From the NCBI GenBank assembly GCA_964510585.1, contig CAZECW010000126.1:2734-34733 (forward strand): a stretch of DNA of 32,000 nucleotides. The letters are read 5' to 3'. Under the pieces are notes generated by a model. The model had not been told where the DNA came from, made no database searches, and was given only the letters and a program-made list of their open reading frames with translations. Below are positions 1,832 to 29,852 of this stretch, piece by piece (positions within the stretch are counted from its first letter, which is position 1; every line of letters begins with the position of its first letter). The position numbers and the translations under genes were made by a program. The stretch comes from an uncultured archaeon. Its GTDB lineage: Archaea > Asgardarchaeota > Jordiarchaeia > Jordiarchaeales > Jordiarchaeaceae.

Positions 1832-1927
1832 GGGCGCATGGTCTAGCGGTTATGACACCGCGTTCACACCGCGGTAAATCCTTTTTTGGGGAGCCGAATC
1901 CCCGGTTCGAATCCGGGTGCGCCCACC
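1832..1927 (+). tRNA. tRNA-Val(CAC) with one 21-nt intron in the variable loop (1878-1898)
   Basis: Acceptor GGGCGCA/TGCGCCC, anticodon CAC at 1865-1867, T-arm CCCGG-TTCGAAT-CCGGG, encoded CCA. BHB: helix CGGT/GCCG, bulges AA|A and AA|T. Mature variable loop TAAT. Confidence 0.9.
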
Positions 1928-16878: not shown

Positions 16879-17475
16879 GTGGAGCTTATGAACGAAAAAA
16901 ATGACTTAGAGGAGGAAAATGAAACAGAAGAGGCGGAAGAAGTAGTAGTAGAGGAAAAGGTGACTGCCCGCCTTAAAGAAGATGCCGTGATAGTCGGGGC
17001 AGAGGATGCTCAGAAGATTTATGAAAAAGGTTTCTATGGAGAAATTCAAGAGGATGGAACCCTCAAACTATCCCCCGTAGAATCACTACTCCTCGTGGAA
17101 AGAAACAGATTAGAAGTACTAAATGATAATAATGAAGTCCTAAATTTTCAGGCTCTTACAAAAATTTTTATGAAATATAATCCCAATCTCTGGTTAAAGT
17201 ATTTAGTCTACAGAGATTTAAGATCTAGAGGGTATGTTGTTAGGTCTGGGTATGGAGGGAATATAGATTTTAGGCTATACCCTAGGGGAGCGAAACTTGG
17301 AACTGACACTTCAAAAAGCCTCATCTACATTGTGAGTGAGGGTGCCCCAATTGGTTTGGAGGAGTTAGACAGAGTCACAAGGTTAGCGGTTTCTACAAGA
17401 AAGAGGTTAACTATGGCTGTGGTGAATCGGCAAGGGGAAGTCACATATTATCAAGTGTCTCAAGTATCGATTTGA
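16879..17475 (+). CDS. endA: tRNA splicing endonuclease subunit, probably the non-catalytic structural (beta) type
   Basis: LSPVESLLL, VYRDLRSRGYVV, DFRLY, RLAVSTRKRL. The catalytic Tyr and His positions appear replaced. Confidence 0.85.
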   Translation: MELMNEKNDLEEENETEEAEEVVVEEKVTARLKEDAVIVGAEDAQKIYEKGFYGEIQEDGTLKLSPVESLLLVERNRLEVLNDNNEVLNFQALTKIFMKYNPNLWLKYLVYRDLRSRGYVVRSGYGGNIDFRLYPRGAKLGTDTSKSLIYIVSEGAPIGLEELDRVTRLAVSTRKRLTMAVVNRQGEVTYYQVSQVSI

Positions 17476-19414: not shown

Positions 19415-20227
19415 ATGGCTCAGAAAAAGACAGCCCAAGAGCTTTGGAAGGAAATAGTTAAACCGGTGGTTCCAAGATCCCACAAGCTCTATGAACTATA
19501 TTTTAAATATACTTTTATGGGGATTGAAAGAGGTCAGTGGTTGATTGCCACGCTCAAACGTTTTATTGATTTTAAAGGAAAGCGTGTTTTGGATGTTGGC
19601 TCGGGTTCGGGGGGGATATCTATAGCGTTTGCTAAGAAGGATATAGAAATAGTTAATTTTGATGCAGATAGAAGATACACAATTGTTTCGCAAAGATGGG
19701 CGGAGGAAAATGCAGTAGAGCTTAACCAAATGCTTGCCAGCGGAGAAGAAATGCCCTTTAAAGATGAATCATTTGATGTAATTATTTGTAGTGACGTCAT
19801 AGAGCACTTGGAGAGACCCGAAAATTTGGTAATAGAGGTATCCCGCATCCTCAAAAATGGGGGACTAGTTTACTTAACATGCCCAAACAAAACATCGCCC
19901 AGACTAATATGGGAAGACAACCACTACTTTCTGCCTCTAGTCGTATTACTACCAAGAAAATTAGCAGACTTGTACGTAAGGGCAACTGGCAGAGGCCAAA
20001 AAACTGAGGTAATATTTCTACCTACCTATTCAAAACTTGTAAAAATGTTCAGGAAAGCGGGAATAACTCTTTATTCATTTGAACTCGAAAATAAAATTAA
20101 CGAGTTTAAAAAATCTTCACTATACGGGAAGGTTCCTGGCCTCGTGAACTTTTACAGTAAACACGTATACTTGAAATGGATAAGTCCATTCTGGATATTT
20201 ATCGGAAAAAAGAGGAAACACCCATAA
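19415..20227 (+). CDS. Class I SAM-dependent methyltransferase
   Basis: VLDVGSGSGG motif I; FDVIICSDVIEH; LKNGG. Confidence 0.9.
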   Translation: MAQKKTAQELWKEIVKPVVPRSHKLYELYFKYTFMGIERGQWLIATLKRFIDFKGKRVLDVGSGSGGISIAFAKKDIEIVNFDADRRYTIVSQRWAEENAVELNQMLASGEEMPFKDESFDVIICSDVIEHLERPENLVIEVSRILKNGGLVYLTCPNKTSPRLIWEDNHYFLPLVVLLPRKLADLYVRATGRGQKTEVIFLPTYSKLVKMFRKAGITLYSFELENKINEFKKSSLYGKVPGLVNFYSKHVYLKWISPFWIFIGKKRKHP

Positions 20228-21210: not shown

Positions 21211-21377
21211 TGGTAGCGGGATGTGGATTTGAACCACAGATCTCAGGGTTATGAGCCGACCGCCCTTGCGGTATTCTCCTTAAGGTCTGCGGGATCTCCT
21301 GAGTGGGCTTCCTCTTCTCTCGAAGAGTTCATCTACCTTGGACTTGGACTCTCGATTGAGAATCCATCTATCCCGCT
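21211..21377 (-). tRNA. Initiator tRNA-Met(CAT) with three introns: 10/11 (21338-21367, 30 nt), 15/16 (21303-21332, 30 nt), 29/30 (21258-21286, 29 nt)
   Basis: Spliced product AGCGGGATAGGGTAGTCAGGAGATCCCGCAGGGCTCATAACCCTGAGATCTGTGGTTCAAATCCACATCCCGCTACCA (78 nt). It has the A1:U72 pair and three G-C pairs in the anticodon stem (initiator marks). BHB helices GGAT/GTCC, GGGT/GCCC, CCGC/GCGG. Confidence 0.9.
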
Positions 21378-21549: not shown

Positions 21550-21659
21550 TGGTGGGCCCAACGCGATTCGAACGCGCGCCTGCGACCCTTAAAGGAAGCG
21601 TTCCTTTGAAGTCTTTCGGTTATCAGCCGAACGCTCTGACCAGGCTGAGCTATGGGCCC
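21550..21659 (-). tRNA. tRNA-Ile(GAT) with one 32-nt intron at 45/46 (21581-21612)
   Basis: Acceptor GGGCCCA/TGGGCCC, anticodon GAT at 21624-21622, encoded CCA. Relaxed BHB: helix CGAA/GTCG (one A.G), long intron hairpin AAAGGAA/TTCCTTT. Confidence 0.9.
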
Positions 21660-22114
21660 ACCTGTTTTTGGGTTTATGCTTAATGCCTTTGCGTCCTCTT
21701 ACCTTTTTAGTGTAGCTGTGAGCTTTAGTGGATTTATTGATGTTGTTTTTTATTAAAAAGTCTTTCTCATACCTTTTTAAAGTAATTTATCTATCCTCAG
21801 TTTCTTATCATTGTGGAGTTTTTAAATTATCCTTTTTTGGAGCGGTTTGAAGATTAAAGTAATTTCCTTTTTTATAATAAAATTTGGGAAATTTATTTTT
21901 TTGGTGATACGGGCTGGTGTTACCACAAAAAAGACTAAGCGAAAGAGCCTCAACATACTTGAATGCTGTCCCTCGACCCATTTTTTAAACATTTTTTAAG
22001 CTATTGTCCCCATCTCGCCTGTTTTGTTTTTCATGCTTTAACTATTAGGCAACTCCTCCCAAAATTTTCCTCAAGAAAAAGCTTTATAGATATGGTGCAA
22101 ATAGGATTTGTTAT

Positions 22115-22163
22115 CCAGAAAAATTGTGCGTGGAATTCTTATTGCCCAGAAAAATTGTGCGTG
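22115..22163 (+). repeat. Direct repeat CCAGAAAAATTGTGCGTG x2 (22115-22132, 22146-22163)
   Basis: Exact 18-nt copies with a 31-nt period, over the transporter start region. Confidence 0.85.
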
Positions 22164-25161: not shown

Positions 25162-25287
25162 GGGCTCATAGCTCAGTGGAAGATTCCCAAAAAAGGAAGC
25201 CAAGAGCGCCTGGTTTGCAGCCAGGAGGCCGCGGGTTCAAAACCACAGAGAAAAACTCAAAAGGTGAAACTCCCGCTGAGTCCACCA
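25162..25287 (+). tRNA. tRNA-Ala(TGC) with two introns: 22/23 (25183-25204, 22 nt) and 59/60 (25242-25270, 29 nt)
   Basis: Acceptor GGGCTCA/TGAGTCC with the G3:U70 Ala identity pair, loop TTTGCAG, encoded CCA. BHB helices TGGA/GCCA (one A.G) and TTCA/TGAA. Confidence 0.92.
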
Positions 25288-25421: not shown

Positions 25422-25497
25422 GGGCGAGTAGTCTAGCGGCTATGACACCGCCTTGACGTGGCGGAGGTCGCAGGTTCAAATCCTGCCTCGCCCACCA
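25422..25497 (+). tRNA. tRNA-Val(GAC), intronless
   Basis: Complete cloverleaf GGGCGAG...CTCGCCC-A-CCA, anticodon at 25455-25457. Confidence 0.97.
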
Positions 25498-25527: not shown

Positions 25528-25578
25528 GTTGTGAAAAAAACTTGTTTTTGCCGTCGTCCAAATTCTCCCAGGATAGGT

Positions 25579-25739
25579 GCCGTCGTAACTATTCACAAAG
25601 AATAGCGACAAGCTTAGCCCGGGAGAGCGTCGGATGCTGCCAGAATCCCTGACAGAAGACGAAACTGAAGATCCGATTGTCGCTGGATGCTGCCAGAATC
25701 ACTGACAGAAGGCGACTTCAAATCCGGCCGACGGCACCA
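25579..25739 (+). tRNA. tRNA-Phe(GAA) with three introns: 9/10 (25588-25611, 24 nt), 30/31 (25634-25663, 30 nt), 53/54 (25687-25716, 30 nt)
   Basis: Spliced product GCCGTCGTAGCTTAGCCCGGGAGAGCGTCGGACTGAAGATCCGATTGTCGCTGGTTCAAATCCGGCCGACGGCACCA. BHB helices GTCG/CGAC, CGTC/GACG, CGCT/GGCG, all with 3-nt bulges. Confidence 0.92.
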
Positions 25740-25864: not shown

Positions 25865-25972
25865 TGGTGCGGCTGCCGGGAGTCTCGGATAAAGGCTGCT
25901 CTCCTTCCTCATTCGAACCCGGGTAACGAGCTTGGAAGGCTCGGGTCCTAAACCAGGCTAGACTACAGCCGC
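25865..25972 (-). tRNA. tRNA-Gly(TCC) with one 30-nt intron at 59/60 (25882-25911)
   Basis: Acceptor GCGGCTG/CAGCCGC, anticodon TCC at 25936-25934, encoded CCA. BHB helix TTCG/CGAG, bulges AA|T and AC|T. Confidence 0.94.
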
Positions 25973-28559: not shown

Positions 28560-29852
28560 ATGGCTTGGGATGTGGTTATTGTAGGTGGCGGTGTTGCTGG
28601 TTTGTCTGCGGGTGCTATCCTTGCGAAGGATGGATTTAAAACGCTGGTTTTGGAGGAGAAACTCAGAGTTGGAGGGAGGGGTAATTCCTTCGAATATAAG
28701 AAGGGGTACATTGTTGACTTTGGGATTCATGCTTTGAGGCTTGCAGATAAGGGTGCTGCTGCCAGGGTTTTTGAGCGGATCGGTGAAAAGTTGGAGATTG
28801 TTGAACCTGAGATACAAAAATTGTATTACAAGGATAGTTGGACAGATTTACCCCTGTCTGTTAATAAGCTTTCAACAACACCTATATTCACCCAAAGGGA
28901 TAAGGAAGAGTTAGGACCGGCGCTTACACAGATGTTAACGCTTAAGCCAGAAGAGTATTATGATGTTCCTGTTGAGAAATGGTCGGAAGAAAATGTGAAG
29001 AGTGACAATCTTAAATGGTTTTTAAAAGAAATTTTAACCAAACTACTTTTGGTTGCTGCGGATATGGCGGTGACATCCACTGGGGAACTTTTCGATCTGG
29101 TTCAAGTATTTGTCAAAACTGGTAAAGGGGCAGGGTACGCTGTAGGCGGGTGGAAGACAATACTGGATAGGCTAACTGAAACCGTAGAGGCTAATGGAGA
29201 AGTGAGGGTTGGAACTAAGGCGGAAAAAATTATTGTGAAGAATAATGAAGTCAAAGGAGTGTTAACGAGGGAAGAGACTATAGAAGCAAACAAAGTTATA
29301 GCGGCGTTTCCAGTTCAAAACTTGTTTAGCTTGGTGGAGGAGAAAAACTTTCCAAGAGACTTTGTGGAGAAATCCAAGAATATTCTGCCAAGTATGGGGA
29401 TATCCATCGACTACGGATTCCATAAAAAGGTTTCTGAGTTCCATACCTTCATGTGCTCTGATCCTTGGATGACCGCTACCTTTACCTCAAATATGGATCC
29501 AAGCGTGGCTCCGCCAGGAGAGCAGCTGTTGACAGTTTTTTCGGTACAGCCTCCTAGCATAATAAAGAATTTGGAAGCTGCAAAAAAGGAATTGCAGAGA
29601 ATACAAAACACTATATACAAAATGTTTCCAGAGGCTAAAGGCAATGTGAAATGGGTTAGACCTATGATACTTGACATTGTAGACGGGGCGGCCCTAACTA
29701 CAACTCAGTCCAGAGATAAAAGAGCAGATGCTGCAACCACAATAAAGGGTTTATATCTTGCAGGAGACACATGTAATGGGGAAGGCGCCGGAGGGGATAT
29801 TGCCTTTAACTCTGCTAGAAGATGCGCCGAATATATTATAAAGAGTAGCTAA
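28560..29852 (+). CDS. FAD-dependent oxidoreductase, phytoene desaturase-like family
   Basis: DVVIVGGGVAGLSAG, VGGRGNS, GGWKTILDRL, GLYLAGD. Confidence 0.88.
   Translation: MAWDVVIVGGGVAGLSAGAILAKDGFKTLVLEEKLRVGGRGNSFEYKKGYIVDFGIHALRLADKGAAARVFERIGEKLEIVEPEIQKLYYKDSWTDLPLSVNKLSTTPIFTQRDKEELGPALTQMLTLKPEEYYDVPVEKWSEENVKSDNLKWFLKEILTKLLLVAADMAVTSTGELFDLVQVFVKTGKGAGYAVGGWKTILDRLTETVEANGEVRVGTKAEKIIVKNNEVKGVLTREETIEANKVIAAFPVQNLFSLVEEKNFPRDFVEKSKNILPSMGISIDYGFHKKVSEFHTFMCSDPWMTATFTSNMDPSVAPPGEQLLTVFSVQPPSIIKNLEAAKKELQRIQNTIYKMFPEAKGNVKWVRPMILDIVDGAALTTTQSRDKRADAATTIKGLYLAGDTCNGEGAGGDIAFNSARRCAEYIIKSS

Follow-up and report, generated by a model that had tools for sequence, protein, structure and literature searches.

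Near-identical introns at two sites of one Asgard tRNA-Phe gene: probable ancient intragenic copying followed by gene conversion

We know of no established route by which protein-spliced introns enter tRNA genes, and in Asgard archaea, to our knowledge, almost every tRNA gene is interrupted. Among the systems closest to the one described here, similar introns at different positions in Thermoproteales are read as products of transposition in the accessible text of PMC4090602 and PMC4033280. Heavily interrupted tRNA genes have been described in Freyarchaeia and Atabeyarchaeia (PMC11291895; 10.64898/2026.10.13.758758), and a 2026 preprint reports 2.2 intervening sequences per gene and names the arrival of introns as the central open problem (10.64898/2026.10.13.758758). 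The same preprint clustered introns, counting only families that extend over at least two isotypes, and found almost none in Asgard archaea (10.64898/2026.10.13.758758). Such a test would not count a pair residing in one gene, and the preprint mentions neither same-gene pairs nor gene conversion (10.64898/2026.10.13.758758). In yeasts, tRNA genes and their introns evolve in concert by intergenic conversion (Amstutz et al. 1985, via the accessible text of PMC4090602).

The locus described here carries two near-identical introns at different positions of a single tRNA-Phe gene, and it resembles each of these systems in part. As in Thermoproteales, short and very similar BHB-type introns occupy different, partly non-canonical positions, their placement is limited by a splicing motif that includes exon bases, and copying at the DNA level is inferred from sequence alone. 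Unlike in Thermoproteales, the copies are confined to one gene, the host is an Asgard archaeon, and concerted evolution appears to maintain or restore the likeness of the copies, a process that the accessible text of PMC4090602 and PMC4033280 does not describe. The initial annotation of the locus had invoked the intron translocation proposed for Thermoproteales; the parallel holds for the occurrence of closely similar introns at different positions (90%), but it is an analogy only, given the Asgard host. With Freyarchaeia and Atabeyarchaeia the locus shares its lineage and the presence of several non-canonical introns per tRNA gene at BHB-competent sites, many of which are missed by standard tools. 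As in yeasts, the copies in one genome resemble each other more closely than orthologues of different species do, and this extends to the intron parts. However, whole dispersed gene copies are equalised in yeasts, whereas here the equalised units are two 30-nt introns 53 nt apart in a single-copy gene, and the intervening and surrounding exons differ. As far as we have found, concerted twin introns in one archaeal tRNA gene have not been described before, with the reservation that same-gene pairs may be present in the original 2010 Thermoproteales study.

The host belongs to Jordiarchaeia (Freyrarchaeaceae) and is represented by a metagenome-assembled genome (G000) of 3.78 Mb in 217 contigs with 41.7% G+C. 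Its tRNA-Phe(GAA) gene lies in the window, by which we mean the whole 32,000-nt stretch of DNA that was analysed, and is interrupted after tRNA positions 9, 30 and 53 (introns 9/10, 30/31 and 53/54; Table 1). The unspliced gene was missed by both ARAGORN and the Rfam tRNA model in a scan of the genome. When the three introns are removed in silico, ARAGORN returns a 77-nt tRNA-Phe(GAA) with an encoded CCA and a regular cloverleaf. Intron 9/10 scores 4/4 for helix H and 5/5 for h' of the BHB motif.

Upstream of the gene, the TATA-like box is kept in an alignment of five species and is also seen at further orthologous loci; from its position it is a putative promoter. The leader that follows repeats the 5' acceptor strand, such that TGCCGTCGT occurs at 25549-25557 and again at 25578-25586, the leader copy preceding the actual start of the tRNA by 29 nt. 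All 12 lineages compared below have retained this repeat. The leader of L058, a lineage without intron 9/10, reads TGCTGTTGT, and both changes retain G.U pairing with the 3' acceptor strand; the leader of L084 still reads TGCCGTCGT despite an acceptor stem changed to GCCGCCT. The leader repeat was also considered as a fourth BHB intron and rejected by hand, as the self-complementary 4-mer that such an intron requires is not present.

Table 1. Positions of the features of the tRNA-Phe(GAA) locus, its surroundings and associated genes (window coordinates unless a contig of assembly G000 is named)
Feature	Position	Strand	Basis or remark
TATA-like box TTTAATAA	25520-25527	+	read directly; ~25-30 nt upstream of leader
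Leader with copy of 5' acceptor strand	25549-25578	+	direct repeat
tRNA-Phe(GAA) gene, three introns	25579-25739	+	in-silico splicing + ARAGORN
Exon 1, tRNA positions 1-9	25579-25587	+	in-silico splicing + ARAGORN
Intron 9/10, 24 nt, HBh'	25588-25611	+	local fold; GTCG/CGAC helix, 6-bp hairpin
Exon 2, tRNA positions 10-30	25612-25633	+	in-silico splicing
Intron 30/31, 30 nt, twin copy 1	25634-25663	+	repeat search, fold, BHB register test
Exon 3, tRNA positions 31-53 including anticodon GAA	25664-25686	+	in-silico splicing
Intron 53/54, 30 nt, twin copy 2	25687-25716	+	repeat search, fold, BHB register test
Exon 4, tRNA positions 54-73 and encoded CCA	25717-25739	+	in-silico splicing
EndA catalytic domain, one of two paralogues	17188-17448 (G000:C126:19921-20181)	+	PF01974, 79.9 bits
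Second EndA paralogue domain	G000:C157:27039-27287		PF01974 match
RtcB ligase gene	G000:C58:3702-5036		one match, 578 bits
tRNA-Val-CAC	1832-1925		
Initiator tRNA-Met	21214-21377	-	
tRNA-Ile-GAT	21553-21659	-	
tRNA-Ala-TGC	25162-25287		with G3:U70
tRNA-Val-GAC	25422-25497		
tRNA-Gly-TCC	25868-25972	-	
Tandem repeat, 54-56-nt period	G000:C134:1624-1800; C16:3431-3560; C58:28777; C73:12820-12990; C187:27309		

The gene is part of a tRNA cluster in the window that comprises at least seven genes, six of the seven being interrupted and three being found by ARAGORN or Rfam. A family of tandem repeats with a 54-56-nt period and the core TTCCCATGAAAAAC...TTTCATAA...GTCTAAAACGCTTAAG occurs on several contigs and differs from the CRISPR arrays of the genome (repeat CTTGCAAAAAGAGTTCCTCAG.AACGAGGATTGAAAG; contigs C130, C136, C167 and C210). 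Within the window, a 25-nt direct repeat containing CCAGAAAAATTGTGCGTG (22108-22163; 22/25 identical, 31-nt spacing) is located at the start of an open reading frame for an OPT oligopeptide transporter, and may be a binding site for a regulator. The amine-oxidase gene of the related genome G003 (L061, G003:C27 4572-5834) is 59% identical to the syntenic gene of the window (28560-29852), compared with 91-98% for its neighbours, and looks like a local replacement of a single gene.

Introns 30/31 and 53/54 are identical at 27 of their 30 positions and directly follow the exon sequences CGTCGG and CGCTGG, respectively, in agreement with the initial annotation. A repeat finder reports a longer match of 31 nt (94% identity) that takes in the exon GG, with a spacing of 53 nt. 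No match with three or fewer mismatches was recovered from any of 100 dinucleotide shuffles of the window. A 53-nt tandem duplication was rejected as the origin of the pair, because the T-loop, and not a second exon 31-53, comes after intron 53/54.

Both introns fold into a splicing motif whose central helix joins the last four exon bases upstream of the 5' splice site to the intron bases just upstream of the 3' splice site. At 30/31 the helix pairs CGTC with GACG, the bulges are GG/A and AA/A (the slash marks the cut), and the interior forms a hairpin of nine positions with two mismatches. At 53/54 it pairs CGCT with GGCG through one G.U, the bulges are GG/A and AC/T, and the hairpin is the same as in the twin. 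All three introns of the gene show 4/4 central-helix pairs in the register test and a 3-nt bulge at each cut. The h' hairpin of the twins, with 7 pairs over 9 positions, is in register in 19 of the 20 intron copies compared across lineages. The exon-side helix h is weak in both twin introns, which are therefore classed as HBh'.

The difference between GACG and GGCG had been taken to be exactly the change that each copy needs to pair with its local exon helix. It is true that GACG fully complements CGTC and that GGCG pairs with CGCT through one G.U, but GGCG also pairs with CGTC by means of a G.U, and the 30/31 intron of all three sister species carries GGCG. Thus, the A of GACG is a change in the lineage of the window that turned a G.U into an A-U pair, and not a requirement. 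What had been proposed as an adaptation of the BHB helix shrinks to this one substitution.

The genome encodes candidate proteins for processing such introns. Two genes carry an EndA domain (PF01974; 108 and 80 bits), each within an open frame of ~206 amino acids, and the presence of two separate genes suggests a putative two-subunit endonuclease of the broad-specificity kind. The RtcB match contains one in-frame TGA. Each twin intron would build its own motif, in that its 3' segment G(A/G)CG would pair with the CGTC or CGCT before the 5' splice site, placing the cut sites in two 3-nt bulges and leaving the interior of the intron as a hairpin in the HBh' form. EndA, in the form of its two paralogues, would then cut the twin introns, and RtcB would join the exons. 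From these features we infer that both introns are spliced.

A ~30-nt design common to many introns could by itself bring two of them close together. To place the twins against such a background, BHB-like candidates were enumerated in the host genome, anchored on the T-arm, acceptor stem and CCA, passed through a cloverleaf filter and then submitted to ARAGORN. This partial census yielded 23 loci, some with doubtful parses, and 44 usable introns in 20 tRNA genes, which are to be regarded as a sample only. Intron lengths in the sample peak at 28-31 nt and the first base is A in 33 of the 44, which shows that a common design exists. However, whereas the twins share 0.90 identity, the maximum among 910 between-gene intron pairs of the sample is 0.73, and the best match of the twins to an intron of any other gene is 0.60-0.63. 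The likeness of the twins is thus well above what the shared design provides. With the twins excluded, same-gene pairs exceed between-gene pairs in likeness by very little (0.484 against 0.460; P=0.03 by permutation). The pair at 0.73 consists of same-position introns of two tRNA-Ala genes, the D-loop introns of tRNA-Ala(TGC) (G000:C126:27895-28017) and tRNA-Ala(CGC) (C140, minus strand, 19594-19691), whose likeness was probably inherited through gene duplication.

Searches for additional members of the family were carried out as the initial annotation had proposed. Allowing up to three mismatches, no further copy was found outside tRNA-Phe in the host genome or in six genus genomes, and in the host and five congeners the family does not extend over different tRNA genes or isotypes. 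One near match to the twin 30-mer, on contig C535 of G002, proved to be coding sequence. A genome-wide scan for tRNA-linked, short-range direct-repeat pairs at 85% identity or more revealed no second case. These results agree with the proposal that the twins are paralogues copied inside one gene.

A comparison with relatives, likewise suggested at the outset, covers twelve lineages (G000, G001, G003, G004, G005, L057, L058, L084, L086, L091, L092 and L094; G005 is the same as L007), with orthologous loci drawn from four congeners, from a metagenome scan with an exon-only pattern, and from contigs with homologues of a neighbouring 412-amino-acid protein. The four genomes of what we call the core clade (G000, G001, G003 and G004) and L094 have introns 9/10, 30/31 and 53/54 and lack an intron at 59/60. 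All four introns are present in G005, L057 and L086; L091 and L092 lack only 53/54, and L058 and L084 have only 30/31 and 59/60. Intron 30/31 therefore occurs in 12/12 lineages and is recognisably one family throughout, intron 53/54 occurs in 8/12 and in every case belongs to the 30/31 family, and intron 9/10 occurs in 10/12. In all lineages outside the core clade the exon flank is CGCCGG at the 30/31 site and CGCTGG at the 53/54 site, and the GGCG of the intron can pair with both. The tRNA-Phe gene of Atabeyarchaeia is also interrupted at 30/31 and 53/54, by two introns that are unrelated to each other. Searches with exon or T-arm patterns did not recover tRNA-Phe from the sister family, the matches being other tRNAs, and pattern searches did not recover tRNA-Phe of G002.

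Four introns per gene may not be confined to tRNA-Phe, as the census predicts the same number in tRNA-Leu(GAG) and tRNA-Ser(GGA) of the host (G000:C4, minus strand, 58139-58344, and C18:26649-26818). This number is above the "maximum of three" given for Thermoproteales (PMC4033280).

The distribution among relatives also bears on assembly error, which might duplicate or homogenise a repeat, the source being a metagenome-assembled genome in 217 contigs. The two-intron architecture recurs in eight independent assemblies, one of which is a closed genome of 3,576,204 bp from the same genus, and an artefact is accordingly unlikely. Moreover, tRNA results are returned only when both introns are removed in register, and the assemblies retain differences between the copies where these are present (3, 6, 8 or 9). 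Homogenisation of close repeats by the assembly process in G001 and G004 is likewise unlikely. Convergence on a common design and assembly artefact, taken as a single explanation of the twins, we regard as very improbable.

Since it is present in all 12 lineages, the 30/31 intron is the likely donor, and since every 53/54 intron belongs to the universal 30/31 family, the 53/54 intron is best read as its copy. The suggestion that the copy entered a look-alike target is borne out by the ancestral 5' flanks, CGCCGG and CGCTGG, each of which is able to pair with the GGCG of the intron. The description of the event as recent does not survive the comparison, because the 53/54 copy is found in eight lineages whose flanking proteins are only ~60-70% identical, and because beyond the core clade the copies are 8-9 of 30 positions apart. 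Outside the core clade, each 53/54 copy is nearest to other 53/54 copies and each 30/31 copy to other 30/31 copies. This divergence, together with the grouping by position, points to an old duplication that would have been followed by independent drift.

The history of the 53/54 site was further examined with a tree built from five segments of flanking proteins, for two of which the sister family served as the root. L084, which lacks 53/54, groups with L094 and G002 (support 100/99), and L058 (= M1), which also lacks it, lies next to the core clade (86/93). Forcing the twin-bearing lineages into one clade is rejected with p-AU of 1e-68 to 1e-101. The presence and absence of introns 9/10, 53/54 and 59/60 disagree with the tree, and the patterns +++- and -+-+ (9/10, 30/31, 53/54, 59/60) each appear in both halves of one clade. 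Because of this conflict, a single gain of 53/54 implies at least three precise losses, or else exchange of alleles. A first, smaller tree gave no resolution, and the present one is at odds with every one-event history of 53/54. The pattern could stem from precise losses that happened more than once, from regains, or from tRNA-Phe alleles recombining with one another.

In the core clade, the relationship between the copies is of another kind. The 30/31 and 53/54 introns differ from each other at 3 positions in G000, 1 in G001, 1 in G004 and 6 in G003, whereas orthologous introns differ at 5 positions between G000 and either G001 or G004, and at up to 5-7 within the clade. Paralogues are closer than orthologues here, but not in L094, G005, L057 and L086, where the copies differ at 8-9 positions. 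Moreover, the copies co-vary. Loop bases are specific to the species and the same in both introns (GCCCC in G001, GTTCC in G004), a match that pairing constraint does not explain because the loop is unpaired. Species-specific states in the stem are also common to both copies, and three variable site patterns are identical between them.

These observations bear directly on the possibility that the 53/54 intron was newly inserted from 30/31 just before the core species split, with no later exchange. Such a history gains some plausibility from the position of L058 beside the core clade, since the intron may have been regained in the core stem, which would account for the high identity of the copies there. 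However, sites 7 and 12 and the loop vary between core species yet match between copies, and the copies of G000 resemble the 53/54 type of distant lineages, not the 30/31 type. Since the copies share states that differ between core species, a single copy made before the split is insufficient without later exchange, and we regard this history as improbable.

The strength of the co-variation was assessed by simulation. In 20,000 runs, the two introns evolved independently along the flank-based tree from identical copies, a start that gives the null its best chance. With realistic rates, none of the runs attained the surplus of orthologue distance over paralogue distance seen in the data (P(T<=obs) <1e-4), and the probability of at least three identical patterns was 5e-5 to 2e-3. 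An AU test on the 30-column intron alignment, which is underpowered, gives p=0.17-0.20 for trees that keep the copies orthologous. This test does not reject such trees, and the case for homogenisation rests on the site patterns and the simulation.

Selection might instead keep the twins alike, for instance if both gave rise to the same small or circular RNA or were bound by the same factor. The matching loop and stem states in three species would be compatible with such a demand, as would the conservation of the hairpin across the 20 intron copies. Yet the four other lineages with both introns have copies 8-9/30 apart with no matching, which speaks against a general need for identity, and no complementary target of the introns was found in the host genome. 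Parallel fixation of identical, neutral-looking changes in the loop is also far less likely than conversion, judging from the simulation. We therefore hold selection in place of conversion to be quite improbable, even more so than the insertion just before the core split.

Later homogenisation accounts better than fresh insertion for the near-identity of the introns in the window, and the sites that differ offer hints as to how this would have proceeded. At the two diagnostic sites, which distinguish 30/31-type from 53/54-type copies in other lineages, both copies of G000 are of the 53/54 type and both copies of G001, G003 and G004 are of the 30/31 type. Although only two sites are diagnostic, this suggests that conversion may have run in opposite ways, apparently towards the 53/54 type in the species of the window and towards the 30/31 type in its sisters. 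The last base (A versus C) is copy-specific in all four core species, as is position 26 in G000. Copy-specific bases at the 3' end fit conversion tracts that end inside the intron; the tracts would span approximately positions 1-24, with the last six bases keeping the differences between copies.

Taken together, we favour ancient copying within the gene, into a site resembling that of the donor (CGCYGG before the cut), followed by gene conversion, with a probability of roughly 0.7. The 53/54 intron would have been copied from the 30/31 intron, which all lineages carry, into another position of this gene. The flank there, CGCTGG, is able to pair with the intron segment that also pairs at the donor site, whose ancestral flank is CGCCGG. 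The copying would predate the split of the sampled genus-level lineages. In most lineages the copies would have drifted apart afterwards; in the core clade, short-tract gene conversion would have re-homogenised the 30-nt repeats across their 53-nt spacing. Losses, regains or exchange of alleles at 53/54 would also have taken place. For both the copying and the conversion, a mechanism acting on DNA is what we infer from the patterns described above.

A bolder alternative is that BHB introns of Freyrarchaeaceae are still mobile at the DNA level, with copying aimed by the pairing of the 3' segment of the intron with CGCYGG-like exon flanks. The 53/54 site of tRNA-Phe would then have been repeatedly filled, emptied and refilled in different lineages, and the twins of the core clade would be the latest round. 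We consider this unlikely, though less so than any of the other alternatives discussed; if it were true, the locus would represent intron arrival in progress in Asgard archaea.

All of this concerns one locus, known through metagenome assemblies, and the copying of introns itself has a precedent in Thermoproteales. Nonetheless, the locus is a clear example of the copying of an intron sequence in an Asgard lineage. The donor can be identified, the target has the exon flank of the donor, and related genomes show the copy diverged, homogenised or absent, which gives a rare opportunity to trace the spread of such introns. The locus also indicates that two introns may be alike without either having been inserted recently. 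Conversion can reset the clock between introns already in place, which matters wherever intron gains are dated by sequence identity.
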